From an uncultured Thermoleophilaceae bacterium (lineage in GTDB: Bacteria > Actinomycetota > Thermoleophilia > Solirubrobacterales > Thermoleophilaceae), in assembly GCA_963808955.1 (NCBI GenBank), contig CAWEHQ010000014.1, positions 52,091-116,090 on the forward strand: DNA of 64,000 bases, in the 5' to 3' direction. Shown here piece by piece: positions 19,773 to 32,049 of this stretch (the first letter of the stretch is position 1; every line of letters begins with the position of its first letter). The notes beneath the pieces were generated by a model. That model was not told the DNA's origin. It saw only the letters and a program-made list of their open reading frames with translations, and did not search any database. The position numbers and the translations under genes were made by a program.

Positions 19773-21686
19773 TCACTCCGCCCGATGCACCTGCCCGTGG
19801 ATGTCCCTCGCCACCTTCCCCGGCAAGCCGGGCACGGCCTCGAGCTCCTCCCGGCTTGCCGAGAGGAAGCGCTCCGGAGAGCCGAAGTGGGTCAGGATCC
19901 GTCGCTTGCGCGCCGGCCCCACCCCGGGGAGCTCGTCCAGCACCGACCGCGTCATCGCGCGATCGCGGCGGCCGCGATGAAACTCGATCGCGAACCGGTG
20001 TGCCTCGTCGCGCACGCGCTGGAGGAGCTGCAGCGCCGGTGAGTCGTGGGGTAGCCGCAGTGGCTCCGATGCGCCGGGCGTGAACACCTCCTCGATCCGC
20101 TTCGCGAGGCTCACCACCGCGACGCCGAGGTCACGGAACGGCTCGAGCTCGTGCAATCCGGAGGAAAGCTGGCCCTTGCCGCCGTCGAGCACGATCAGCG
20201 CCGGGGCTGCCGCGAAGCTCGCGTCGTAGCTGCGCTCGTGCGGTGAGCGCTCGCGCTGCGCCGTGTACTGAGCCATTCGTCGGGAGAGCACCTCGCCCAT
20301 TGCGGCCACGTCATCCTGAGCGACGTCGCGGACCCCGAAGCGCCGGTAGTCGGATTTCTTGGGAGCGCCGCCCTCGAACACGACCATCGAGGCAACGGTG
20401 TGGGTCTCGCGAAGGTTCGAGATGTCGAAGCACTCGATCCGCATCGGAATCGTGTCGAGGCCGAGCGCCTGCTGCAGGCCGTCGAGTGCGTCGACGCGCT
20501 GCACTCGGCGCCGCTCCGAGCGGAGCCGGTCCTGGTCGAGGGCGAGCTGCGCGTTGCGCTGCGCCAACTCGAATATCCGGCGCTTGTCGCCCCGCTCGGC
20601 GCGGCGGACCTCGACCGGAGCGCCACGACGCTCGGCCAGGGCCTCGGCGAGCGCGTCGGTGCGGCCGAGGGCCGAGGGCACGATCACCTGGGGCGGTATC
20701 GCCGGCGAGGTCGCGTAGTACTGGAGCACGAATTCCTCGCTGACCTCGCCCTCGTCGCGGGCGGCCCGGTTCTCGAGGTAGAAGCTGTGGCGGTCGGCGA
20801 GCACGCCGTCACGCACCTGGAACACCTGGGCGTTCGCATCGGTTCCGTCGACCGCCACGGCCACGGCGTCGAGCGTGCCCACCGCCTCGTTCGAGATCCG
20901 CTGCCGCTCGAGCAGTGACCGGACGGCGCGCAGCCGGTTGCGGAAGTGCGCCGCGCGCTCGAACTCCTGCTCCTCGGCGGCGCTCCGCATCTCCTGCTCC
21001 AGATCGCGCTCCACCTGGCGGTAGCGACCGGACAGGAAACCGACGATCGCGTCGATGTTCTCGCGGTACTCCTTGCGCGACACGTAGCCGACGCACGGCG
21101 CCTGGCAGCGCTTGATGAAGTAGTCGAGGCAGGGGCTCCCCGAGGCACGGCCGGGCTCCGGCCCGTCGCATGTCCGGTACTGGAACACCTTGCCGAGGAG
21201 GTCGAGCGTCTCGCGAACCCGCTTTGCGCTCGAGAAGGGGCCGAAGTAGGCGCGTCCGCGACGGTGCCGCTCGCGGGTGAAGTAGACCCGCGGGAAGTCC
21301 TCGTCCAGCGAGATCCCGATGTACGGATAGGACTTGTCGTCGCGGAGCCGCACGTTGAACTGCGGTCGGTGCCGCTTGATGAAGTTCTGCTCGGCGAGCA
21401 GCGCCTCGGCCTCCGTCTCAGTGGCAACGAAGTCGATGCTCTCGACCTCGTCGAGCATGTCCTGGAGCCCGCGGGTGGAGGGATTCGAGAAGTGCGACGC
21501 GACGCGCTTTCGGATCGAGTTCGCCTTGCCCACGTAGAGGACCCGGCGGCGCCGCCCCCGGAAGAGGTAGACGCCGGGCACGTCTGGGAGGGAGCGCCGC
21601 TGCTCGGCGAGGCGCTCGGCACGGGTGGCGCCGTCGCGCCGGGGCGCGCCGTTTCGCCGCTGGTCCTGTGTCGGGCTCTTCGCCAT
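19773..21686 (-). CDS. uvrC: excinuclease ABC subunit C
   Basis: 637 aa. Has the GIY-YIG motif GVYLFRGRRRRVLYVGKANSIRKRV, the UvrBC-interaction and endonuclease regions, and a C-terminal (HhH)2 region ELPGVGPARKRRIL. Confidence 0.93.
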   Translation of the reverse strand: MAKSPTQDQRRNGAPRRDGATRAERLAEQRRSLPDVPGVYLFRGRRRRVLYVGKANSIRKRVASHFSNPSTRGLQDMLDEVESIDFVATETEAEALLAEQNFIKRHRPQFNVRLRDDKSYPYIGISLDEDFPRVYFTRERHRRGRAYFGPFSSAKRVRETLDLLGKVFQYRTCDGPEPGRASGSPCLDYFIKRCQAPCVGYVSRKEYRENIDAIVGFLSGRYRQVERDLEQEMRSAAEEQEFERAAHFRNRLRAVRSLLERQRISNEAVGTLDAVAVAVDGTDANAQVFQVRDGVLADRHSFYLENRAARDEGEVSEEFVLQYYATSPAIPPQVIVPSALGRTDALAEALAERRGAPVEVRRAERGDKRRIFELAQRNAQLALDQDRLRSERRRVQRVDALDGLQQALGLDTIPMRIECFDISNLRETHTVASMVVFEGGAPKKSDYRRFGVRDVAQDDVAAMGEVLSRRMAQYTAQRERSPHERSYDASFAAAPALIVLDGGKGQLSSGLHELEPFRDLGVAVVSLAKRIEEVFTPGASEPLRLPHDSPALQLLQRVRDEAHRFAIEFHRGRRDRAMTRSVLDELPGVGPARKRRILTHFGSPERFLSASREELEAVPGLPGKVARDIHGQVHRAE

Positions 21687-21781: not shown

Positions 21782-22002
21782 ATGTTCCGCTGGCTGGGGG
21801 CGAGCTTCCTCACGATCCTTGCGCTGGTGGCATTCTGGTGGTGGTGGCGATCCCGCTGTTGTTCGTCTACCGCTCGCAGTGCCCCGACGGCGGCGAGCTG
21901 TCGACCGCCTACAGCTTCGTGCCCCCCTGGGACGACCCCGACCGGGAGTGCCGCAACCACCAGCGCGGCTTCGAGGTGGTCACGGACGAAATCGGGCTGT
22001 AG
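21782..22002 (+). pseudogene. small hypothetical membrane protein, probable frameshift near 21845
   Basis: MFRWLGASFLTILALVAF in one frame continues plausibly as VVVAIPLLFVYRSQCPDGGELSTAYSFVPPWDDPDRECRNHQRGFEVVTDEIGL, with its stop at 22000-22002, in another frame. No family was recognised. Confidence 0.3.
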
Positions 22003-22102
22003 CCGCCCGCAGCTCCGGCGGCTCGCTCCCTCCGAATCGCGTTCGATGGCACTCTTCCCCGCTATAGCGAGGGAACTGCACAGTGAACGCCCGGGCGCGT
22101 CG

Positions 22103-22195
22103 CTACTCCAGCATCGCACCCCGCGGATTGTGCGTGTAGCCGTAGTGCCAGGGCTCCGATGCGTGATTGCCTAGCGACTGCGAGCTACTCCCGCT
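22103..22195 (-). repeat. repeat copy R0: remnant of the 3' end of a VanY/M15B-type peptidase gene (encodes ...SEPWHYGYTHNPRGAMLE-stop)
   Basis: Core cgtagtgccagggctcc is at 22141-22157. By hand count, 22128-22157 matches 30468-30497 of the intact gene at 26 of 30 positions. Only about 30 codons are open upstream. Confidence 0.7.
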
Positions 22196-22228
22196 GGGTA
22201 GTCAGAGGGTTGCGGCGCTGCACTCGCA

Positions 22229-22693
22229 TCAGCTGACCGGATCGCAGCCAGCGGCGGCTTGTGCCGCCTTCATCTGCTCCTCGTCGGGCATCGGATGGTC
22301 TGCTGGCGGGAGGGTGCGGGTCGGGGCCGGATCGCTAGTCGCTCTGACCAGATCCTCGAACCCGCCGGGGGTGAGGGCAAAGAGCATTCGGGAGCCGGCC
22401 TCGCCAACCTCGTAGCCGTGTGGTACGTCACGCGGCCCGAACACGAAGTCGCCGGCGCTCGCCTCAATCGTCCGGCCGCCGATTTCGAACGTCACCTCGC
22501 CCTCGAGCACCCAGAATGCCTCGTCCTCGCGGTGATGGACGTGCATTGGCGCTTTGACCCGAGGGGGATCGGTGACATCAAGAACGGTCAGACTCCCGCC
22601 GGTGTCCGCCGCAGTAGCCTTGATTATGGCCAGCGCGCCGAGCCACCAGCGCGCCTCTCCTTCGTTGCTTCTGACTGCCAGTGCATCCGCCAT
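22229..22693 (-). CDS. cupin domain-containing protein
   Basis: 154 aa. APMHVHHREDEAFWVLEGEVTFEIGGRTIEASAGDFVFGPRDVPHGY contains the two cupin His-containing motifs. Confidence 0.85.
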   Translation of the reverse strand: MADALAVRSNEGEARWWLGALAIIKATAADTGGSLTVLDVTDPPRVKAPMHVHHREDEAFWVLEGEVTFEIGGRTIEASAGDFVFGPRDVPHGYEVGEAGSRMLFALTPGGFEDLVRATSDPAPTRTLPPADHPMPDEEQMKAAQAAAGCDPVS

Positions 22694-22898
22694 GGGTGGT
22701 CCTTCCTTTCATCAGGTCATCGATCCTCAGAAGCCAGCATGGCGTAACGCCGCGGGTTGCCGCTTCTCGCGCGGAGCGGCAGCGGACGCTGAAAGTCCTC
22801 CACGAGGAGGCTCGATAGCTGATCGAGGGCCAGGGGCGAGGTTCACCGCCCGCGGCCCCGGCTAAGTGACCTGCGGCAACTGTGAGCGGGTGCACTCA

Positions 22899-23045
22899 CG
22901 CGTAGGTCAAAGCGGCGGGGATGCGCTCGATGTCCGGCGGCTAAGGGGCGCTGCCGGCCTCGGTCGTGCGTCGCCGCTGGCGAAATAGCGTTAGCCCAAC
23001 CCGTAGTGCCATCGCTCCCAGCCTCGGGCAGGCGTTTCGGAGGCG
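22899..23045. repeat. repeat copy R1 (cassette-boundary-like element)
   Basis: 22899-23019 aligns without gaps to 23532-23652 at 110 of 121 positions (hand alignment). It contains a dead copy of the last 13 codons of the SnoaL-like gene (the AAG codon in R2 is TAG here, then VKAAGMRSMSGG-stop). On the other strand it has the ERWHYGLG-stop remnant (core 23002-23018). Confidence 0.8.
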
Positions 23046-23103
23046 CCGGCCAGGTCGACTTTGAAGCCGTGGACCGGGGTAGGCTGGCCGAGGTGTCCCC
23101 GAC

Positions 23104-23577
23104 ATGAACAAGAAAGAGATGCAACGCCTCTTCGAGAAGCACCGCGAGGCAGAGGGGGCCAGAGACCTCGACGCGATCTTGGAGACGTTCATCGAGGAAT
23201 GCTTTTTGGAAACGGTGGCGCTGGGCCTGCGCAGCGAAGGCCGGGCGGCGGCGCGAGCGGCGTACGAGGGGTACTTCACGGCCTTTCCGGACCTGACGCC
23301 TGAGGACCACGAGGTAGTGGTCGGGGACGACGTCGTCGTCGCGTGGGGACACCTGCGTGGCACGAGCGGAGGAGACTGGCTTGGCGTTCCTCCATCCGGA
23401 GTCTCGTTCTCTGTCCCCTTCGTGAACGTAGCGCCGTTCAAGGATGGGCTGATGGCCGGGGAGAGCATCTATTTCGACCTTGCCACGCTCTGTGAGCAGG
23501 CGGCCCTGCCGCTTGACCAGGTTCGAGCTGGCGCGAAGGTCAGAGCGGCGGAGATGCGCTCGATGTCCGGCGGCTAA
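23104..23577 (+). CDS. SnoaL-like / ester cyclase family protein (NTF2-like fold)
   Basis: 157 aa. EAEGARDLDAILETFIEECFLETVALG...GRAAARAAYEGYFTAFPDLTPE...VVAWGHLRGTSGGDWLGVPPSGVSFSVPFVNVAPFKDGLMAGESIYFD. The last 45 nt lie inside repeat R2. Confidence 0.8.
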   Translation: MNKKEMQRLFEKHREAEGARDLDAILETFIEECFLETVALGLRSEGRAAARAAYEGYFTAFPDLTPEDHEVVVGDDVVVAWGHLRGTSGGDWLGVPPSGVSFSVPFVNVAPFKDGLMAGESIYFDLATLCEQAALPLDQVRAGAKVRAAEMRSMSGG

Positions 23578-23702
23578 GCGGCGCTGCCAGCCTCGGTCGT
23601 GCGTCGCCGCGGGCGAAATAGGGTAAGCGCAACCCGTAGTGCCACGGCTCCCGAGCGGCGGCACTGGCGGTCCGCAGGCCAGCGGGCAATACTTCGGAGG
23701 CG
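23532..23702. repeat. repeat copy R2 (cassette-boundary-like element)
   Basis: See R1. The minus strand encodes the remnant ...AAREPWHYGLRLPYF... (core 23635-23651). The shared tail motif ttcggaggcg is at 23693-23702. Confidence 0.8.
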
Positions 23703-23776
23703 ATGTCGAACGGAATCCAGCAGCTTTCGCGGCGCGCGACACGCTCGCCTCGATCGCTGGCGAAGGAGGGTGGCAA

Positions 23777-24208
23777 GTGGCCCATGACCCTGATCTGCCG
23801 CTTGAGGAGTACCACCGGGCAGGGCGGGAACTCACGAACGGGAACCCGGACGTCTACAAGGCCCTCTACTCCCGCCGTGACGATGTGACCCTTGCCAATC
23901 CATTCGGTCCGCCCGTCCGTGGTTGGGACGCGGTGTCTTCGACACTGGACCGCGCCGCTAAGCACTATCGGGATGGCGAGGTTGTGGGATTCGAGAACGT
24001 GTCCACTGTCATCAGTCCGGACCTCGCCTACACCCTCGAGATCGAGAGCTACCGGGCCCGCGTCGCCGGGGCCGAGGAACTCGCCCCCGTGTCGATTCGG
24101 GTCACCACCGGCTTTCGGCGCGAAGGTGGCGCCTGGAAGGTCGTACACAGGCACGCCGACCCAATCACCGGGCACCGTCCGGGCGACTCCGTAGTTCAGA
24201 CCGACTAA
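23777..24208 (+). CDS. NTF2-like (DUF4440/SnoaL-like) domain protein
   Basis: The track ORF is 23639..24208. I prefer GTG 23777, which lies 7 nt after gaaggaggg (an SD-like sequence), because the upstream part lies in repeat R2. Sequence: NPDVYKALYSRRDDVTLANPFGPPVRGWDAV...YTLEIESYRARVAG...VTTGFRREGGAWKVVHRHAD. Confidence 0.7.
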   Translation: MAHDPDLPLEEYHRAGRELTNGNPDVYKALYSRRDDVTLANPFGPPVRGWDAVSSTLDRAAKHYRDGEVVGFENVSTVISPDLAYTLEIESYRARVAGAEELAPVSIRVTTGFRREGGAWKVVHRHADPITGHRPGDSVVQTD

Positions 24209-24228
24209 ACGCGCAGCCCCGACACGTT

Positions 24229-24295
24229 CGGCGGAAAGTGGGCTAACGAAGCTCGTAGTGCCAGGGCTCCGACGCCTGGCGAGCGCGAGCTTCTG
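24229..24295. repeat. repeat copy R3: shorter, more diverged copy of the same element (encodes SEPWHYELR-stop on the minus strand)
   Basis: Core cgtagtgccagggctcc at 24254-24270 is identical to the R0 core. The flanks are alignable to R0 and R1 at lower identity. Confidence 0.65.
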
Positions 24296-24387
24296 GCTTC
24301 GCGCATTGGGTGACTAGCACGTCAAGGGGCGCCGACGCCACTCCCTTGTATCGATAGCGAGCTGCGGGTCAGAACGCTCGAAGGCAC

Positions 24388-24841
24388 GTTAGGTGCCGGG
24401 TGGCGCCGGCGTTAGGCCGTGCCGGCGCATGACCTCCGGCCACCTTGGCCATGTCGGGCGGTGCCCCAGGAGTCGACGACCAGCCGTCGTGAATCTCACG
24501 GAAATAGTCCGGCGACATGACCGCGGCTAGCTATTGCAAGGAACTTGCGTCTTCGGTCGCGCGGTTGTCGAAACCATGGACCGCTCCGCGAGGTACGCAG
24601 AAGGCTTCGCCGGGGTGAATATCGAGCGTCCGACCGTCAACCGTCCAAGTCGTGGCCCCTTCGAGCCCGTAGATCGTCTGCTCGAAGGCGTCGTGACTGT
24701 GCGGCGCCGGCATCTTGCTGTTGGCCGAGAACGAGCGCACGGATCGAGGACGCTCACGCTTCCGTTCGAATCGGCGGCCTCAACGAGGAAGCGCACGCTG
24801 AGGGCGCCGACTTGAATCATCTCCCCCGGTGCTGAAGCCAT
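24388..24841 (-). pseudogene. cupin domain protein, decayed (two frameshifts plus one in-frame TAG at 24531-24533)
   Basis: MASAPGEMIQVGALSVRFLVEAADSNGSVSVL, then (shift) RSFSANSKMPAPHSHDAFEQTIYGLEGATTWTVDGRTLDIHPGEAFCVPRGAVHGFDN...SSLQ-TAG-LAAVMSPDYFREI...PPDMAKVA, then (shift) EVMRRHGLTPAPPGT-stop. Confidence 0.65.
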
Positions 24842-25401
24842 TCCCGTCTCCGACGCGTCGCTGTCTCAGAAGTCTCGCGGGGAGAAACGTACCTCGTCAA
24901 CCAGTTCTCACTGGCCTCGAGGATTTCGCTCTGCTGTCGCTTCCGTGTGAAACCGCCACTCAGGATGCCCACCGGGCTGGCTAGCACGTATTGCGTGTAC
25001 GACGTCGTCGTAGATGCTCGGCCCCCGGCGACGAGCCCTAGGTCTTCCGGGATGTCGTTCGCGCCCTAGCCGTTCTTTGGCGGGGACGCCGTCGCCGGCC
25101 CCGACTCGCCTGATTCGCCTCCTCGGAAGCTGGGCTACCGCCGCTTGGCCGGAGTCACGGCTCGCACCTCGACGCTCTCGTCCCCCCGGTCGCCGCGACA
25201 GTCGTCTTGATGCGGAGCCCAGCGATGCCATGGCTACCCTTCCTCGAGCGGGAATCCGTCCCGGAGGTGATCCGCCGAGAGCGCAGCGCTTGCCGCTCGC
25301 CCTTTGCGGGCGTCTCGCCCTTTGACCACCGACACGGGCGCTTGCGCTGCCGAGGACCGACGGTTAGGGTCGCAGTGGCAACTCACCCTGGGGGTGGTCT
25401 C

Positions 25402-25680
25402 ATGCACGTTGTGATTAAGCACCGGATCAAGGATCCGGAGCAGTTCTTCGCGGGCGATGCTGAGGAGGTCGCGAAGGGCGGACCGCCTGGCGTACGGGGG
25501 CGCCAGTTCCTCGTCAGCCAGGACAAGTCGGCAGCCGTCTGCCTCTGGGAGGCCGATTCGGTCGAGAACCTCCGCAACTACATGGACGGACTCACCGGGG
25601 AGTCTGCCGAAAACACGTACTTCGAGGTCGATGAGGAGATCTCGATGGGTCTACCGGAGGCGGCTAGGGCGAGCGCCTAG
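25402..25680 (+). CDS. hypothetical small protein (92 aa)
   Basis: MHVVIKHRIKDPEQFFAGDAEEVAKGGPPGVRGRQFLVSQDKSAAVCLWEADSVENLRNYMDGLTGESAENTYFEVDEEISMGLPE has protein-like composition. No family was recognised. Confidence 0.45.
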   Translation: MHVVIKHRIKDPEQFFAGDAEEVAKGGPPGVRGRQFLVSQDKSAAVCLWEADSVENLRNYMDGLTGESAENTYFEVDEEISMGLPEAARASA

Positions 25681-25689
25681 GTGTAGCTC

Positions 25690-25900
25690 CTAACCACCTT
25701 CGTCAGTAAGACATCCGGGCCCCCTTGGAGGCTGAGAGCTGCGAAGCCACTCAGTCCCAAGGAGGACACCGGATGAAGCTCCACGGTAACGCCCGCACCT
25801 GTCCGAACAGCCGCAGGCTCCTAGCCGAGTGGGTCTCTGAGCAGGGCTGGTCGGTGACGGCGGCGGCCGAGGCCGCCGGCGTCAGCGAGCGCACGGCGTG
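25690..25900 (+). mobile_element. IS481-family insertion sequence fragment (left end plus the first ~43 codons of the transposase)
   Basis: SD-like ggagg then ATG 25773. MKLHGNARTCPNSRRLLAEWVSEQGWSVTAAAEAAGVSERTAW is the HTH N-terminus typical of IS481-family transposases. The reading frame loses similarity at about 25895, where the opposite-strand sheath sequence begins. No DDE domain is present. Confidence 0.7.
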
Positions 25901-26122
25901 GGCGAGGAAGGCGCCCTCCATGAAGGGTCCGTTGCCGGGCGTGGTCGGGTCGCCGTAGACCTTCCTGAACTGCCACCACTGCGAAACCGGGACCGGGGTG
26001 TTCACGGGTCCGCCAGGGGCCAGGCCTACGAACGCGGCGACCGAAGTCCCCACCCCCTCGATTGGTTTCGAGCCAGATGTGACTTCCTCTAGGTATATCC
26101 CGGGACTTAGGTAAGTCGGCAT
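25892..26122 (-). pseudogene. contractile tail sheath protein (phage / extracellular contractile injection system type), N-terminal ~77 codons only
   Basis: MPTYLSPGIYLEEVTSGSKPIEGVGTSVAAFVGLAPGGPVNTPVPVSQWWQFRKVYGDP...FLAHAV is the highly conserved sheath N-terminus. It is truncated by the IS481 fragment. Confidence 0.75.
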
Positions 26123-26136
26123 AGCTCCCGAAGCGG

Positions 26137-26988
26137 CTACGCGATGTCGCCAACCCGCCTGCCCCAGCAGGCATGCACCAACTCCCGCAGGAACCAGACC
26201 GTGGGATCGGCGAGCGCGGTGGTTATCACCTCGAGCTCGCGCTCATCCGACTCGTCGCCGCCGCCAAGCTCGTTCATGACCTCCAGGGTCACGGCGAACC
26301 ATCTCGCCCAGGGTGAGCCTCCGCGCACCATCTCCGTGGTCGCCTCATGGCGAATGTTCTGAAGACCGTAGCGCTCAAACAGTGGCGGCAGCTTCTGCCC
26401 AAACGCCTTGTCGTAACCGCGAGAAGTAAACCAACCGCCGTCTCGCCAGGCGCGCCGGTAGCCGTCATAGAGCGGGTGCGCAGGATCGACTGGAGCGGCT
26501 GTCCCCCACTCGGCGTCCTCGTCGATCAGCCAGCCACCTGGGCGCAGGCACTTCGTCATTTGGCTGATCGCCGCCCCTTGCCTGCCTACGAGATGAAACA
26601 GCATGAAGCGCGAGCAGACGAGATCGAACGAACCCGGGCGCAGCACTTCGAGCGGGTCCTCGAGGATGTTGTGGCCGAGCACCTCGAGGTTCGGATGGTC
26701 GAGCCGCTGCAGGTAACGGGTGTCTATGTCGGTCGCGACCACTTGGCCGGCCGGACCGACTTGGTCGGCCAACCACATCGCCATCGAGCCTCGCCCCGCG
26801 CCGACCTCCAGACACCTCCAGCCCCGCTGAACCAGTGCCCGTCGCCGGCGCGACACCGGATCGAAGAGCTGCTCGAGAAGACTTAGCCGCTCATCTTCGG
26901 CCGCCTCTCGGCCCGCGGCCTCAAGGCGATAGCCAGGTCCGGTCTCAAGGGACTCCGCACCTTGAGCGGTGGGCCGCGGCTCCGCCAC
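26137..26988 (-). CDS. class I SAM-dependent methyltransferase
   Basis: 283 aa. Motif I is CLEVGAGRGSMAMWLADQVGPAGQVVATDID, with FDLVCSRFMLFHL and LRPGGWLIDED. Confidence 0.85.
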   Translation of the reverse strand: MAEPRPTAQGAESLETGPGYRLEAAGREAAEDERLSLLEQLFDPVSRRRRALVQRGWRCLEVGAGRGSMAMWLADQVGPAGQVVATDIDTRYLQRLDHPNLEVLGHNILEDPLEVLRPGSFDLVCSRFMLFHLVGRQGAAISQMTKCLRPGGWLIDEDAEWGTAAPVDPAHPLYDGYRRAWRDGGWFTSRGYDKAFGQKLPPLFERYGLQNIRHEATTEMVRGGSPWARWFAVTLEVMNELGGGDESDERELEVITTALADPTVWFLRELVHACWGRRVGDIA

Positions 26989-27137
26989 GGTGACAACGTA
27001 GCTTCGGGGGCCGGGCCGAGCAAGCGAGTTCTGGCGGAGTGCCGCTTGCCTGTAAGCGACAACTCTGTCGCCCGAGCGGTTTGAGGCTCAGGTCCCTGGC
27101 GCTAGCTTCTGCGCGTCGCGCAAAGCAGGAGCGGGGT

Positions 27138-27680
27138 TTAGCTCGACGGCACCGTGACGTCGATCACGACCTCGATGGTGTCGCGCACCTTCAGCGCGCC
27201 CATCAGCCCACGGTAGGGCTTGATCCCCCACTCGCTCTGGGTCACCGGCAGCGTCCCGCCGATCCGGCCGTCCGCCGCCATGTCGAGCTCGAAGCTAGTC
27301 GACCGCGTCGTGCCGGCGAGGTCGAGTTCGCCGCGGACGGTCAGTGCACCGTCGGCTAGGTCGACCACGCTCGAGCGGAAGACGATCGGCTGTCCCCGCA
27401 GGATCTTCTCGTCGATGGTCTTGCGGATGTCGGCACGGTCCTTATCCGTGAGCGGCCTGACCCCGCGCAACCCCTCGCGCACCCGCAACGACCGTGGGTC
27501 GGCGTTGACCCGAACGGCGGACAGCGTGCCATCCTCGCCGACCTCAGCGGTCGCCTCCCAACGCTCGACATCGATGATCAGGTCATGGCCGACCTTCTGG
27601 GCCACGCCCTCCCGGTACGTGCGCACCTGCAACATCCCCTTGTGACCGCCGACCGTGTGGGCGCCAGCTCGTAGCGGCAC
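27138..27680 (-). CDS. YceI family protein
   Basis: 180 aa. GHDLIIDVERWEATAEV...TVRGELDLAGTTRSTSFELD...LPVTQSEWGIKPYRGLMGALKVRDTIEVVIDV. Confidence 0.75.
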   Translation of the reverse strand: MPLRAGAHTVGGHKGMLQVRTYREGVAQKVGHDLIIDVERWEATAEVGEDGTLSAVRVNADPRSLRVREGLRGVRPLTDKDRADIRKTIDEKILRGQPIVFRSSVVDLADGALTVRGELDLAGTTRSTSFELDMAADGRIGGTLPVTQSEWGIKPYRGLMGALKVRDTIEVVIDVTVPSS

Positions 27681-27855
27681 AGGCGCGACCCTATCGTTCG
27701 CAACGCTGCGCGAAGCTGTGGTACTCCACGCGCAAATGCGGAGTGGGCACGATGCCGCCCTCGCCAGTCCGTAGCACTCGGGCCAACCGCAACCGCGGGG
27801 TCACACTGACCTACTCCAGCAGTTCCGCCGCGCGTGAGGGATCTACGTGCATGCG

Positions 27856-29172
27856 TCACGCGCGCGCTTCGGCGAGGCGCTCGATCTCGTAGTTGAGAGT
27901 CAGGAACCGCTGGCCGGCAAGGTAGAAGCTGTGGTCGGTCTTCAGCTCGCCGTCGGCCACGTAGACGAAGATTTGTTCCTGGAAATAGAGCAGCTTGAGG
28001 ACGGTCAGGGCGTCTCGCTCGCTGTCGACGGAGCTCAGGTAGTGGCCCGGGAACTCGAGCTCGGTGCGCGAGGTCAGAATGAAGTCGTGCTCGCGAGCGT
28101 TGCTGGGCAGGAGGGTGGCGGTGAAGTTGGCGCTCGGGATCGGGAAGCCGACGCTCACGTAGCCGCGCTCCTGGTGCCTGAAGCTCGTGTATATGCCGAC
28201 GTAAATCGGCTTGCCCGAGTCTGCGAACGTCCGGATCCAGCCGCGGATGTCGATCTCCTCGTCGCCGTCCAGGGTGATCGTGTCGATCGTGCTGACCATC
28301 CCCCGCTGGGCCTCCTCGATGTTGGACGGGATCGCCGCCTGGCCGAGCGGCTCCGCGACCACGAGCTTGAAGAGCTCGTATCCGGGTTTCATCCAGCGCC
28401 GCCACTCCGGAATGATCGAGAGCCGGAAGCGGCTGGTGTGCTCGTAGAACTCGCGGATCAGCGGGTGCACTTGGCTCGCGTCGAAGGTCGGCCCCTCCAG
28501 GCTGTCGAGTGAGGCCAGGATGCCGACGTCCGGCGGGTTGCGGCGGAAGGTGCCGCCGCGGGCCTGCGCGAGCTGCTCGACGTAGTCGGCGCCGACGTAC
28601 CTCGAGCGCGCTTCGAATGGGACGACGTAGCGCAGCTCCGACGCCGGGACCTCCTCGGCCATCACTCGCACCAGTTCGCGCCCGCGGTAAGCGACCGCAG
28701 CGACCACGCGGTAGGTGAGCGTCACGGCTGCTGCGACAAGCGCCGGTTCGAGACCATCGTCGAGAGCCTGGAACAAAACACCCAGGACGGCGCCGAGCAG
28801 GAACCCGAGGAGCGCCTTGCCGGGGCGCAGGCCGAGCAGGCCGATGAGCGCGCCGCTGATGACCGCGGTGACGAGGGGCTGGTCGGGGCCGTAGATCAGG
28901 CCGAGCAGCCAGCCGAACAGGGCCATCAGCAGGACGCTGCTGAGGATGCGGTACCAGAGCGGCTTCGGCTCGGCGGGCCCCCGCCTAATGCTCGTGATCA
29001 CCTCTGCCGGCGCGTACAGCGCGGCGCCGATCAGAGCGCCGAGCCCGGCTCCAAGCCCGTCGATCGCGTCGCCGAGCACGGCGCCGGATGCGGCGCCGAG
29101 GGCCGCGCCCCAGACCAGCCCGTCGCGAATCCGCCCGGAGCGGCTCCTTCTGCGTCGGTCCGGTTGCGCCAT
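27856..29172 (-). CDS. hypothetical membrane protein: Gly-zipper-rich TM N-terminal third plus a ~270-aa soluble C-terminal domain of unknown function
   Basis: The start is chosen at MAQPDRRRRS (29172). TM region: GLVWGAALGAASGAVLGDAIDGLGAGLGALIGAAL...LLGFLLGAVLGVLF. C-terminal domain: FYEHTSRFRLSIIPEWRRWMKPGYELF...GWIRTFADSGKPIYVGIYTSFRH. I did not confidently recognise this domain. Confidence 0.55.
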   Translation of the reverse strand: MAQPDRRRRSRSGRIRDGLVWGAALGAASGAVLGDAIDGLGAGLGALIGAALYAPAEVITSIRRGPAEPKPLWYRILSSVLLMALFGWLLGLIYGPDQPLVTAVISGALIGLLGLRPGKALLGFLLGAVLGVLFQALDDGLEPALVAAAVTLTYRVVAAVAYRGRELVRVMAEEVPASELRYVVPFEARSRYVGADYVEQLAQARGGTFRRNPPDVGILASLDSLEGPTFDASQVHPLIREFYEHTSRFRLSIIPEWRRWMKPGYELFKLVVAEPLGQAAIPSNIEEAQRGMVSTIDTITLDGDEEIDIRGWIRTFADSGKPIYVGIYTSFRHQERGYVSVGFPIPSANFTATLLPSNAREHDFILTSRTELEFPGHYLSSVDSERDALTVLKLLYFQEQIFVYVADGELKTDHSFYLAGQRFLTLNYEIERLAEARA

Positions 29173-29444
29173 CCGCGCAGTATCGCTCCGGTCGTGTGGC
29201 CGGCGCCTGGTCTCGTAGGATCGGTTGATGGAGGCCAGGGACCTGGCGGTCGGCTTGGCTGGCGGAAGGATCGTCATCGGCGTCGTGTCGCTTCTGGTGC
29301 CTGGAGTTGTGGGCCGCGCGATGATGGGCCCTGACGTGGCCTCGGGCGGGGCGCGCCTCTTCCTCCGCGTGGTCGCTGACGCCGGTCGTCGAACACCGGC
29401 AGCCGAGGAACACGCCGCCTGCGGCGTCGGATTACCATCGCTGC

Positions 29445-29891
29445 ATGGCGGTGCCCTCGGAAGGTCTCGAGCTGGAGCTCGAGCGCACGCTTCCGGCGTC
29501 TCCTCCGGTCGTGTTCGCGGCGTTTACCGACCCGAACGAGTTGGCAAAGTGGTGGGGACCGGAAGGCTTCAGTGTCCCGAGTGTCGAGTTCAACCCTCGC
29601 GTCGGAGCGATCTACCGGATCGAGATGCAGCCGCCGGAGGGCAGCTCTTTCCACCTCACAGGCGAGGTCCAGGAAGTCGACCCCCCTTCTCGGCTTGCGT
29701 TCACGTTTGCGTGGGAGCCGCCCGACCCGGATGACGTCAAGACGCTCGTCGACCTGTCGTTTCGGGATTTCGGAGGCTCTACGGGAGTCGCCTTCACGCA
29801 AGGGCCGTTCAGAACTGAGGAACGCCGCACGCTCCACCAGGGCGGCTGGAGCGACAGCTTCGACAAGCTCGAACGTCTCCTCTCCGCTTAG
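29445..29891 (+). CDS. SRPBCC family protein (Aha1/AHSA1-like START fold)
   Basis: 148 aa. LELERTLPASPPVVFAAFTDPNELAKWWGPEGF...RLAFTFAW...HQGGWSDSFDKLERLL. Confidence 0.85.
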   Translation: MAVPSEGLELELERTLPASPPVVFAAFTDPNELAKWWGPEGFSVPSVEFNPRVGAIYRIEMQPPEGSSFHLTGEVQEVDPPSRLAFTFAWEPPDPDDVKTLVDLSFRDFGGSTGVAFTQGPFRTEERRTLHQGGWSDSFDKLERLLSA

Positions 29892-29971
29892 CGGTCGGCC
29901 AGCCCGGTCGGGATCGAGGCAGGTCTGGCACCGGACGTCTGGAAGTGCGTCGAGACGGCTTTGCGGAGCCG

Positions 29972-31327
29972 CTACTCCACCAGCCGCACCTCGAAGTCGA
30001 GCGCCCCCGCCAGCCCCTCCGCTCCGATCAGGCTGAGGATCTTCGCGACGTAGGCCTGCGTCTCCGGGTAGGGCGGGATGCAGCCGCAGGCCGCGACGGC
30101 GCCCTCGCCGGCGTTGTAGGCGGCGAGCGCCAGCGGCACCGAGGCAAAGCGGCGCAGCAGGTCGTGCATCAGGTGGGCCTGCGCGTCGATCGCCTGCTCG
30201 GGGTCGAAGGGGTTGCCGAGACCGTAGGCGGCGGCGGTGCCCGGCATGAACTGGGCGATGCCCTGCGCGCCGGCCGGCGACACCGCCCTCGGGTTGAAGC
30301 CGGACTCGGCATAGAGCTGGGCCGAGATCAGCGCAGCCGACACTTTCCAGCGCCGGGCGGCCGCGACGATCGCCGGCCGGTACTGCGCCGGGACGAACGA
30401 CGGGACCGCGCTCGACCCGCCGCTGTGCACGCCGTCGCGGCCGAAGCCGACCGACGAGCTGCCCGGGTTGTGCGTATAGCCGTAATGCCACGGTTCCCAG
30501 CTGTACCTCTGGATGAAGCCGAAGCGCTCGGCGTTGCGCGCGAGCCAGCCGTACGCCGAGGCCGGGCCCAGGTCGAGCTCCGTGCCGTACCGGTGGAGGC
30601 TCGTGCCGGGGCGCGCCACCATCTTCGGGTCGGGGTTCTGCGCGAACAACCGCGCCTGCTCGGAGTCGGACCGGAACGCGCTTGTGATCGTCAGCGAGAT
30701 TCCGTCCTTGCGGGCCGCCGCCTCCATGCGGTCGAACGCCTGGGCGACGTCCGGGCGCATCGGCTCGCCCTGGCGGTATGCGAACGGGCCGTCGTACTCG
30801 CCGCCCGCACCGGCGAGGTCCGTCGTCACCAGAGGGACGAGCTCGGCCTTTGCCCGGCCCCTGACGCGCACGCTTCTCCGGGCCGCCCCGTCCGAGCCGC
30901 GGCCGCCGAGCCGAAGCTCCTGCTCTCCCCGCACCACCGTGCGAACGAGGAGCGGTCCGAGGCCGTCGCCGCCCGAGAAGTGAACGTCGCCGGCGGACAG
31001 ACCGAACCCGTTCCTCCGCGCCGCCCGGATCGCCGCGGCGCGGGCCCTGTCCACGTACTCGTCGCGGCTCAGGTGGCGGGGATTCGGTACGCCGGGGCGG
31101 AGGTAGGCCGGCTCGAGCAGCCTCGGGTAGGCATCGCGCATGGCATGCGCCGCCGAGACCGCGGCGAGGTCGGCCGCGCGCTGGTGGCGCCCCTTCCCGC
31201 CAAGCCCCTGTCCGAACGCCGCGAGGACCAGCGCCCCGGCGATCAACACGGCGGCCAGCCCGACCAGCAGCACCACGGCCTGCCCCGACTCGCCTCGCGC
31301 CCTGAACGCGGCCCGGCGCGTCACCAC
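29972..31327 (-). CDS. three-domain protein: TadG/TadE-G-like N-terminal membrane anchor plus VanY/M15B D-Ala-D-Ala carboxypeptidase plus SLT lytic transglycosylase
   Basis: The GTG start at 31327/31324 overlaps the upstream stop. N-terminus: GESGQAVVLLVGLAAVLIAGALVL...HQRAADLAAVSAAHA (Tad pilus-assembly N-terminal pattern). Middle: TSAFRSDSEQARLF, SLHRYGTELDL, WEPWHYGY (M15B zinc and catalytic motifs). C-terminus: ISAQLYAESGFNPRAVSPAGAQGIAQFMPGTA...LAAYNAGEGAV (SLT). Confidence 0.8.
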   Translation of the reverse strand: MVTRRAAFRARGESGQAVVLLVGLAAVLIAGALVLAAFGQGLGGKGRHQRAADLAAVSAAHAMRDAYPRLLEPAYLRPGVPNPRHLSRDEYVDRARAAAIRAARRNGFGLSAGDVHFSGGDGLGPLLVRTVVRGEQELRLGGRGSDGAARRSVRVRGRAKAELVPLVTTDLAGAGGEYDGPFAYRQGEPMRPDVAQAFDRMEAAARKDGISLTITSAFRSDSEQARLFAQNPDPKMVARPGTSLHRYGTELDLGPASAYGWLARNAERFGFIQRYSWEPWHYGYTHNPGSSSVGFGRDGVHSGGSSAVPSFVPAQYRPAIVAAARRWKVSAALISAQLYAESGFNPRAVSPAGAQGIAQFMPGTAAAYGLGNPFDPEQAIDAQAHLMHDLLRRFASVPLALAAYNAGEGAVAACGCIPPYPETQAYVAKILSLIGAEGLAGALDFEVRLVE

Positions 31328-32049
31328 TCGCTCCTCACCACCGCGCACGGCTCGGCGACCTGACCCAGACCGTCGCCGAGCACTCCCGAGCCGCGACCGG
31401 CGAGCGCTAAACGAGCCCCCAGAGCGGAGCGGCCGAGCACCGCCGCCGCTCGCCCCTCCCACCGCTCGAGATCGCCGCTCGCATCGGCGCGGTTGAGAGC
31501 CACGAGCGGCGACGGTCCGATCCGTCCGAGCGAAGCCGCCACGGCATCCGCAAGCGCCGGCTCGGCGGCCGGCGTCGCAACGACGACCACGTGGTCCGCC
31601 AGCGACACCGCCACGCCGGCCGGCTCGCCGTGGCCCACGTCAATTACGAGCGGCGCCAGATGCCGGACCCGGTCGGCGAGCGGTCCCGGCTCGCCGTCCT
31701 CCACCAGGCAGAGCCGCCCCGCGGCCCGAACTCGCTCCCCCGCTCCCGGCCCCACCGCCCTGGCGAGCGTCCGGGCCTGCCAGACGCCCGGCGCAAGCGG
31801 TCCCCGGCCCCAAGCGCCCGCCACCAACGCGGCGCCAGCAGGATCCCGATGAGCGAGCCCGCTCGCCAGCCCGCGAGCGACCGTGGTCGTGCCACACCGG
31901 CTCGCGAGCCCCACGACCGCCACCACCGGGCGCAGTGTGATCGCGGTTGGCCGTGCGACCTCCTCCACCGGCTCGAGCAGGAAGGCACCGACCCTCGCGA
32001 GCGCGGCGGCCGCCAGCCGGCGACCGGGCGAGGTTGCGGTCACGCTCAT
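31321..32049 (-). CDS. CpaE/ParA-like protein with a degenerate Walker A motif (actinobacterial Tad-neighbourhood type)
   Basis: The start is at MSVTATSPG (32049, an ATGA overlap with the upstream stop). VVAVVGLASRCGTTTVARGLASGLA sits where MinD/CpaE proteins carry GGxGKT, and no Lys is present. VVVVATPAAEPAL and LVALNRAD resemble the CpaE layout. Confidence 0.55.
   Translation of the reverse strand: MSVTATSPGRRLAAAALARVGAFLLEPVEEVARPTAITLRPVVAVVGLASRCGTTTVARGLASGLAHRDPAGAALVAGAWGRGPLAPGVWQARTLARAVGPGAGERVRAAGRLCLVEDGEPGPLADRVRHLAPLVIDVGHGEPAGVAVSLADHVVVVATPAAEPALADAVAASLGRIGPSPLVALNRADASGDLERWEGRAAAVLGRSALGARLALAGRGSGVLGDGLGQVAEPCAVVRSEW

Follow-up and report, generated by a model that had tools for sequence, protein, structure and literature searches.

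What is the nature of a short repeat which, always in the same direction, lies between unrelated small genes in the accessory island of a soil actinobacterium? The question is raised by a 64-kb stretch of DNA (the window; part of contig CAWEHQ010000014.1), whose lineage, as judged from UvrC, is Thermoleophilaceae (Actinomycetota), the closest of 80 related loci having 87% identity. A 17-nt core, CGTAGTGCCANNGCTCC, is present in the window at positions 22141, 23002, 23635 and 24254, in each case on the plus strand and with 0 mismatches, and a fifth copy, with two mismatches, is located at 30481 inside a gene specifying a protein with Tad, VanY and SLT domains (TadG-VanY-SLT). The four same-orientation cores had been picked out in an earlier description based on the DNA letters alone (the sequence-only reading), and their number clearly exceeds expectation, as 0.20 core matches are expected from shuffles and 0 of 100 shuffles reached five.

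It is proposed, tentatively and with a confidence that stops somewhat short of an even chance, that the four repeats (R0 to R3) would represent an attachment (att)-like recombination site which bounds gene modules and is used by an unlinked recombinase. As judged by sequence comparison, the core duplicates the stretch of VanY-domain genes that encodes WEPWHYG. The repeats belong to an element family which occupies module boundaries in two unrelated arrays, includes one copy of hybrid nature (R0) and displays neither a fold nor a linked recombinase; we infer that the arrays arose through recombination at the core, the recombinase being encoded elsewhere.

The repeat family and the module genes

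The repeat copies and the genes of the array are as follows.

22103 to 22165, plus strand: R0, a hybrid junction, assigned by core match, tblastn and alignment to the resident gene end
22229 to 22693, minus strand: module gene 1, cupin, 154 amino acids (aa), by Pfam
22899 to 23026, plus strand: R1, comprising a dead SnoaL 3' fragment (22899 to 22945), the left arm, the core (23002 to 23018) and the right arm of the downstream SnoaL unit
23104 to 23577, plus strand: module gene 2, SnoaL-like ester cyclase, 157 aa, by Pfam
23532 to 23659, plus strand: R2, comprising the live SnoaL 3' end, the left arm and the core (23635 to 23651)
23777 to 24208, plus strand: module gene 3, SnoaL_3/DUF4440 (NTF2-like), 143 aa, by Pfam
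24229 to 24278, plus strand: R3, a mosaic copy, from arm comparison and the sharp divergence break between the window and contig L001
~24388 to 24841, minus strand: module gene 4, cupin, by Pfam, with a frameshift in the window but an intact reading frame (149 aa) in L001
30481 to 30497, minus strand: resident core copy in TadG-VanY-SLT (WEPWHYGY), from a core search with two mismatches

When read on the minus strand, each copy encodes an EPWHY-like peptide, as had been described, R0 giving ASEPWHYGYTHNPRGAMLE-stop, R1 GWERWHYGLG-stop, R2 REPWHYGLRL... and R3 ASEPWHYELR-stop. A tolerance of three mismatches in the core search added only chance-level matches, and no repeat copies were detected elsewhere in the window beyond the island, apart from the core in VanY-SLT. 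R1 (22899 to 23019) and R2 (23532 to 23652) are 91% identical over 121 nt without gaps, which bears out the near-identity noted previously. R1, R2 and R3 have a 42-nt stretch in common, the left arm of R3 being 74% identical over 42 nt to the R1/R2 type, while R0 and R3 share 19 exact bases that extend past the core, R3 joining the core to a right arm of the R0 type. The family thus defined measures ~45 nt, the core being preceded by a left arm of roughly GAAATAGCGTTAGNGCAAYC; all four window copies have the exact core, and their arms are 60 to 91% alike or unrelated.

The antisense strand of the family consensus reads (W)E(P/R)WH(Y/W)G(L)(R/G/H)-stop, followed by CGCTATTTC, and in the form (W)EPWHYGLR-stop it resembles the end of some VanY-type open reading frame (ORF); no VanY-type ORF with such an end was found beside any array. 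The claim that the repeat derives from a VanY gene could be upheld beyond the core for R0, as detailed below, but not for R1 to R3, in which VanY similarity is confined to the 15- to 18-nt WEPWHYG-coding core.

The sequence-only reading had further placed one small gene in each interval between repeats. Pfam assignments agree with the different families and mixed strands, but the fourth gene is located after R3 and not between repeats. Two of the four genes are inverted, whereas the orientation of the repeat is constant. The array is not an assembly artefact, since an independent metagenome contig (L001; ENA ERZ25039591) holds the same array from just past the R0 core to beyond gene 4, and two Logan contigs hold parts of it. 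The SnoaL C-terminal tail, ...AKARAEE[ML]RS..GG, is kept in homologs from unrelated contigs; for this reason, the last 13 SnoaL codons inside R2 are real coding sequence and R1 carries a dead SnoaL 3' fragment, in line with the earlier description. Among SnoaL homologs at 83 to 96% aa identity, the neighboring genes differ in every contig examined.

Copies of the element in other contigs

A second array was identified in contig L164 (NCBI GCA_030155625.1, 2.9 kb), where four copies of the element (C1 to C4) lie between small genes in the following order.

Beta-lactamase 3' fragment
AHSA1 3' fragment
1015 to 1045: C1
SnoaL gene
1594 to 1630: C2
70-aa gene
2073 to 2112: C3
61-aa ORF and 94-aa gene
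2745 to 2776: C4

All genes and all copies in L164 share one direction, the genes being on the plus strand with the element 3' of them, although C2 and C3 are degenerate. The L164 SnoaL gene has 82% nt identity to its window counterpart, and the AHSA1 fragment, together with its untranslated region (UTR), is homologous to the 3' end of the AHSA1 gene of the window (29445 to 29891). This UTR continues into C1 in L164 and into the VanY-SLT stop in the window, and the AHSA1 3' fragment adjoins C1 in L164, whereas its window counterpart is located 5 kb from the array.

Contig L082 (ENA ERZ1758386) contains a core with one mismatch and a recognizable left arm 90 nt upstream of a SnoaL homolog, which is the position of R1, and a degenerate copy of the element is present in L163 (JGI 3300081528). 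A profile built from nine element copies was scanned against ~1.6 Mb of fetched loci, in which the only new member was a solitary copy in L015 (2601 to 2640; antisense RWEPWH-stop-G...), the remaining matches being just the core part of VanY genes. This copy is intergenic, its convergent neighbors being a GNAT acetyltransferase gene and an 84-aa ORF, and lies 4.8 kb upstream of the VanY-SLT core of that same genome. Searches of plasmids (PLSDB) and viral contigs gave no matches. As a separate observation, a 62.6-kb contig of JGI sample 3300041965 (with P0004) carries a SnoaL homolog (88% aa identity) within a long run of small genes, including cupin, SnoaL, epimerase, cupin, RibD_C and SnoaL_2 genes and many ORFs of <130 aa, and may represent a far more extensive array of this type.

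The distribution and structure of the element bear on whether it is an integron remnant, i.e., a cluster of attC sites lacking an integron integrase (CALIN), or a dispersed repeat of the repetitive extragenic palindromic (REP) or miniature inverted-repeat transposable element (MITE) type. The 0.6- to 0.9-kb units, each with a single small gene of a typical cassette family, and the position of the repeat 3' of plus-strand genes in L164 are what a CALIN would display. However, folding of the four repeats on both strands gave z values of -0.72 to +0.65 relative to shuffles, none being better than shuffled sequence; the RNAalifold consensus of 11 aligned copies contained 0 pairs, and neither IntI, among the window ORFs tested, nor terminal inverted repeats were found. 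The sequence-only reading had likened the locus to an integron, a likeness which holds for its architecture but not for its mechanism, there being no attC-like fold on either strand and no integrase. It had also considered a generic, REP-like repeat, yet the L015 copy is the sole additional one within 1.29 Mb of 80 related loci. Furthermore, in Actinobacteria no complete integron, one In0 and a few CALINs have been reported (Néron et al. 2022, PMC9024848). An origin of either type is, on these grounds, considered the least probable of the explanations discussed here.

The core is located ~90 to 100 nt upstream of SnoaL in three contexts (window, L082 and L164), where it is conserved about as well as the gene, a pattern which would suit an element acting in cis on a set of small stress or accessory genes, be it regulatory, protein-binding or RNA. 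We nonetheless regard such a role as very improbable: the orientation of the element is fixed to the array and not to the genes, as it is found 3' of cupins and 5' of SnoaL; a simple promoter and terminator scan gave nothing at the repeats; the element has no fold, no covariation and no Rfam match at E<=1; and it is absent at 80 more distant SnoaL loci (61 to 79% aa identity). A sigma-54-like reading of the minus-strand TGGCAC...TTGC was rejected by eye, the spacing being one base too long and the strand antisense to the genes; rpoN is not known from Actinomycetota.

Breakpoints and mosaic copies

Between L163 and the window (95% nt identity), homology stops at 23634, the base preceding the R2 core (23635), and past this breakpoint L163 carries the 3' end of an extracytoplasmic function (ECF) sigma-factor gene. 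L001 begins right after the R0 core and differs from the window at 3/2097 nt to the left of R3, as opposed to 56/1025 nt to its right (p=3e-24). Beginning abruptly at R3, the differences (window 24220 to 25279 versus L001 2065 to 3102) comprise 27 extra and 7 missing window bases and 22 substitutions, and this pattern, rich in single-base indels, could be real decay, a strain recombination boundary or local assembly noise.

The copies themselves are mosaic. R3 combines a left arm of the R1/R2 type with a right arm of the R0 type, and R0 combines a VanY-SLT left arm with a cassette right arm, such that R0 and R3 have the right arm in common while their left arms are unrelated. A recent cupin duplication as the source of the R0/R3 similarity was ruled out, as the two window cupins share only 34% aa identity. 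In general, the sequence to the right of the core tracks the downstream gene, R1, C1 and the L082 copy sharing ...GCTCCCA(G/A)(C/A)C..CG.. upstream of SnoaL, and the left arm tracks the upstream gene.

An exact core amid diverged or unrelated arms, arms that track the gene on their own side, arm mosaics and breakpoints at the core point to recombination there or beside it. The proposed att-like role would also be consistent with the presence of the same element at the boundaries of other single small genes in L164, with the constant orientation of the repeat versus the varying orientation of the genes, and with the changing neighbors of SnoaL homologs. Of the two possibilities put forward in the sequence-only reading, that of a cassette-boundary element is in this respect supported by L164, L082, the L163 breakpoint, the divergence jump at R3 and the R0 hybrid, and the element is regarded here as a candidate cassette boundary of a new kind, with a coding motif as its origin.

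The same material may be read without any active site: one old VanY fragment and its adjacent sequence would have been copied by local segmental duplication and then cut up, in a decaying accessory region, by deletions and illegitimate joins, leaving functionless repeats, and the window and L164 would be related by common descent. In favor of such passive relics, R1/R2 is a plain 121-nt duplication that includes coding sequence; debris is frequent (the dead SnoaL, AHSA1 and beta-lactamase pieces, an IS481 fragment and a broken cupin); three copies (C2, C3 and that of L163) are degenerate; the element is uncommon and restricted to the closest SnoaL clade; and the recombinase search of the tested ORFs was empty. 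What this account leaves poorly explained is that the core is identical at 15/15 positions in four copies whose arms are ~60% alike or unrelated (for R3 versus R2, 0.6^15 ~ 5e-4), that copies stand at nearly every gene boundary in two arrays of different gene sets, that breakpoints of both homology and divergence coincide with the core, and that R0 and R3 share a right arm next to unrelated left arms. It is considered unlikely, if by no means negligible.

R0 and the resident TadG-VanY-SLT gene

The position of the array relative to the resident gene is defined by the following features.

19773 to 21686, minus strand: uvrC, flanking gene of the locus
21838 to 22002, plus strand: small54, a conserved small membrane-protein gene adjoining uvrC and forming the native edge of the locus, from comparison with relatives
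22003 to 29971, no strand: accessory island of ~8 kb, from the small54 stop to the VanY-SLT stop, delimited by composition and comparison with relatives
29445 to 29891, plus strand: AHSA1-family gene at the far end of the island, by Pfam
29972 to 31462, minus strand: TadG-VanY-SLT gene (Tad, VanY and SLT domains), by Pfam, a native gene

TadG-VanY-SLT directly abuts uvrC in several relatives (L033, L073, L055, L017 and L078), and small54 sits between the two genes, convergent with VanY-SLT, in L078, L021, L023 and L075. The TadG-VanY-SLT fusion next to uvrC is kept across Thermoleophilaceae/Solirubrobacterales (loci L002 to L081), with a gap of ~50 nt to ~7 kb. Because the distance from the VanY core to uvrC varies from 0.57 to 7.3 kb among relatives, the VanY-SLT/uvrC interval is considered a variable spot, i.e., a hotspot for accessory DNA. 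In these relatives, each locus has a single core, inside the orthologous TadG-VanY-SLT gene and in the same orientation relative to uvrC.

The sequence-only reading had derived the repeat from the 3' end of a VanY gene; in the resident gene, however, the EPWHY motif is located mid-gene, with ~172 codons still to follow before the stop, where the VanY domain ends and ahead of the SLT domain. The related suggestion of serial insertion regenerating a target 3' end is not sustained either, since the whole of the resident gene is native and the island begins only past the stop codon of that gene. The G+C content at third codon positions (GC3) of the resident gene is 0.93 to 0.97 on either side of the core, and relatives are ranked alike for both halves, with L078 closest; an element-borne replacement of the SLT 3' part was ruled out on this basis.

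R0 nevertheless retains sequence of the resident gene on one side of its core. Its minus strand reads from a cassette-type arm (..HAS) through the core into EPWHYGYTHNP, identical to the resident protein over 11/11 residues (tblastn E=5e-5), and then into RGAMLE-stop, so that the YGYTHNP noted in the sequence-only reading is confirmed. Past the core, 18/24 bases of R0 match the resident gene, against a mean of 7.7 over all element-by-ortholog comparisons and <=12 in the other copies; for R0, the similarity to VanY is hence above background, a point on which the earlier description had left room for doubt. The R0 tail (CGGGGTGC-GATGCTGGAGTAGCG) aligns at 20/24 positions with the resident gene at its final codons and stop (CGAGGTGCGGCTGGTGGAGTAGCG, ...EVRLVE-stop), the alignment score being 26 and the maximum in 100 shuffles 25, and the C terminus FEVRLVE-stop is kept in about 40 TadG-VanY-SLT orthologs. 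The R0 stop lies ~100 nt from the small54 stop, which is the position of the native gene end in relatives (67 nt in L078), and the opposite side of R0 is the arm that it has in common with R3.

R0 is accordingly interpreted, from sequence comparison, as a junction at which the core links a cassette-type arm to a displaced copy of the VanY-SLT core-to-stop segment that has undergone an internal deletion, and it is the only copy that is demonstrably VanY-SLT derived beyond the core. On this interpretation, the island is flanked by direct copies of that segment: the resident core-to-stop (30497 to 29972) and R0 (22156 to 22103) both read EPWHYGYTHNP ... LVE-stop, the end of R0 being decayed. The location of R0 at the native position of the gene end, with EPWHYGYTHNP retained, would agree with a role of the core as an att-like site. 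Two further possibilities were not upheld. A search for a decayed SLT domain beside R0 by tblastn, whose output was very noisy, gave only the 11-residue match, with no more than the last ~7 codons and the stop aligning, and an origin of the left arm from VanY-SLT mid-gene sequence or from its terminal codons or UTR was not supported.

The resident core differs from the repeat core only at synonymous codons ending in A/T (GAA and CAT, with TAT just after), and the R0 codons at the motif are the most common ones among orthologs (GAGCCCTGGCACTAC). EPWHYGY (30476 to 30497) is the sole 7-codon window of the resident gene with >=3 A/T-ending codons outside the N-terminal low-complexity region, local GC3 being ~0.95. 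This cluster of three rare A/T-ending codons would fit selection against identity, and hence recombination, with the array cores, an argument that is admittedly post hoc.

The hotspot character of the locus, the direct core-to-stop copies at the edges of the island (R0 being the deleted one) and the lack of a linked recombinase are features which could be accommodated without a dedicated enzyme. The WEPWHYG-coding microhomology would then allow host repair to integrate circles in a Campbell-style manner or to delete between copies, and the arrays would be by-products of island exchange at the VanY-SLT/uvrC hotspot. However, 15 to 19 nt is far under the usual length for RecA-dependent exchange, and the element, including its non-VanY left arm, is also present in contexts without a nearby VanY gene (L164, L082 and L015). 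Short-homology recombination of this kind is considered improbable.

Comparison with known systems

Several known systems resemble the arrays in part. As in integron arrays and CALINs, units of 0.5 to 0.9 kb each hold one small accessory gene (cupin, SnoaL, NTF2-like or AHSA1) next to a site of constant orientation, the same gene appears in different arrays with other neighbors, and there is no nearby integrase, which would accord with CALIN status only. The ~45-nt site, in contrast to attC, lacks the R''/L''-L'/R' palindrome and a predicted fold, and part of it copies a protein-coding motif. The rule that integron cassettes consist of one promoterless ORF followed by the site, in a single orientation, holds in L164, whereas two of the four genes in the window are inverted.

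Genomic islands and integrative elements that insert in a conserved gene with direct repeats of the target, tandem accretions included, share with the present island its location next to a conserved gene, the direct core-to-stop copies at both ends and the internal cores between sub-units; they are unlike it in that no integrase is present here, each sub-unit is one gene of <1 kb, the sequence in common is mid-gene and the resident gene is native throughout. Serine integrases use attB sites in actinobacterial coding genes or repeats, as exemplified by Bxb1 in groEL1 and phiRv1 in REP13E12. The element would resemble such attB sites as a ~40- to 50-bp, double-stranded, hairpin-free site in conserved coding sequence, with conserved flanks on either side of a variable central dinucleotide (NN), and differs in the lack of a phage or integrase, the many direct copies, the small cargo and a dyad symmetry that is not evident.

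Orphan toxin-tip/immunity modules of cdiA/rhs loci similarly lie downstream of a large gene and carry short copies of its internal motif, each followed by different sequence. Here, however, a stop is reached 2 to 12 codons past the motif (R0, R1, R3, C1 and C4), no alternative C-terminal domain is encoded, and the module genes are mostly on the other strand. REP and MITE repeats differ from the element in that its copy number is low and it is neither palindromic nor bounded by terminal inverted repeats. Xer/dif (pdif) modules are surrounded by 28-bp dif-like sites with two inverted 11-bp arms, in alternating orientation. Compared with such sites, the element copies are all direct, and inverted arms are not seen in the 45-nt alignment.

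A possible route of array assembly

If the repeats are att-like sites, the ~45-bp element would separate single-gene modules that are joined, exchanged and lost via recombination at or beside the core, and the matching stretch inside VanY-SLT would be the chromosomal partner of the array cores. An event with this partner may have left R0, in which a cassette arm would have been joined to a displaced 3' part of the gene that was later internally deleted. Three steps could be envisaged: a circle would be excised by core-by-core recombination of a VanY-SLT gene with a cassette core downstream of it; this circle would integrate at the core of a naive VanY-SLT gene; and a deletion would then occur within the displaced, redundant gene copy. 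Such a path predicts a foreign SLT part in the resident gene, whereas the resident SLT part looks native.

Several points weigh against the proposed role. No recombinase was found among the window ORFs tested, in accordance with the sequence-only reading, or in any related contig, and the site, being without dyad symmetry and without a fold, fits no characterized class. The reciprocal junction (VanY 5' part, core and cassette left arm) is absent, the resident gene being intact and native, and an extra duplication or circle-integration step must consequently be assumed. The known sample of the element is thin, consisting of two arrays, two single copies and one degenerate copy; the degeneracy of C2, C3 and the L163 copy is what decay predicts, and the element is absent not only at the 80 more distant SnoaL loci but also at three NTF2-like homolog loci (~82% nt identity, other contexts). 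Since dead SnoaL sequence (R1) and AHSA1 and beta-lactamase fragments (L164) are present, deletions that are not site specific also shaped the arrays. With two gene families in common, the arrays of the window and L164 could be descendants of a single ancestral island. Some of the indel-rich differences beyond R3 may reflect assembly noise or consensus errors in the window, although a strain mixture as the cause of such errors would itself point to variation starting at R3. Finally, GAA and CAT are also used in two other TadG-VanY-SLT orthologs.

Other features of the island and its surroundings

The island has a G+C content of ~65% and a GC3 of 0.74 to 0.79, compared with 70 to 77% and >0.9 in its flanks, and a search of the 80 relatives within 10 kb of uvrC found none of its genes there. 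Exact look-ups of UvrC and AHSA1 gave no record. It encodes cupin, SnoaL, NTF2-like, SCO4226-like, methyltransferase, YceI and AHSA1 proteins and a 473-aa protein (27856 to 29277), which has a Gly-zipper-like membrane region at its N terminus and is otherwise without a Pfam match. Outside the island, the window contains housekeeping genes; no recombinase domains were found among the ORFs tested across the 64 kb, and no tRNA genes are present in the window.

The sole trace of a mobile element in the island is an IS481 leucine-zipper/helix-turn-helix fragment at 25725 to 25958 on the plus strand (Pfam E=1.3e-4). It forms part of a region of overlapping debris on both strands (25725 to 26122), in which a minus-strand ORF beginning MPTYLSPGIYLEEV... 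resembles the N terminus of a contractile tail or contractile injection system (CIS) sheath, without a Pfam match at E<0.01.

At the other edge, small54 apparently has a frameshift in the window, the membrane segment at its N terminus (ATG at 21782, MFRWLGASFLTILALVAF...) being off-frame relative to the conserved C-terminal part (21838 to 22002), whereas it is a single continuous ORF in relatives L078, L021 and L023; the frame break reflects either a pseudogene or a consensus error within a GGTGGTGGTGG run. Among the loci compared, L052, L063 and L066 are labelled as metagenome-assembled genomes of Bifidobacterium (breve), yet their uvrC is Solirubrobacterales-like (54 to 60% identity to that of the window), and L052, at least, also has the TadG-VanY-SLT gene. 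These are probably mis-binned or mislabelled records.

Implications for gene capture in Actinomycetota

Integrons represent the standard bacterial means of stockpiling and shuffling single-gene cassettes and are essentially missing from Actinomycetota. It is conceivable, although we consider it rather doubtful, that some Thermoleophilia possess an integron-analogous cassette system, with an unstructured ~45-bp double-stranded site, an unlinked recombinase, TadG-VanY-SLT as a docking site and a host gene selected to recode synonymously. A second type of cassette boundary, neither a folded attC nor linked to an integrase, would, if true, imply more than one evolutionary origin for the capture of genes as cassettes. 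Part of the fine-scale mobility seen in soil actinobacteria for the very abundant small genes of the SnoaL, cupin and NTF2 types would likewise be accounted for, and the 45-nt element would serve as a sequence tag for spotting such arrays in soil metagenomes. Even without a dedicated enzyme, the locus is a clear example in which a conserved coding motif serves an accessory island as its anchor for recombination.

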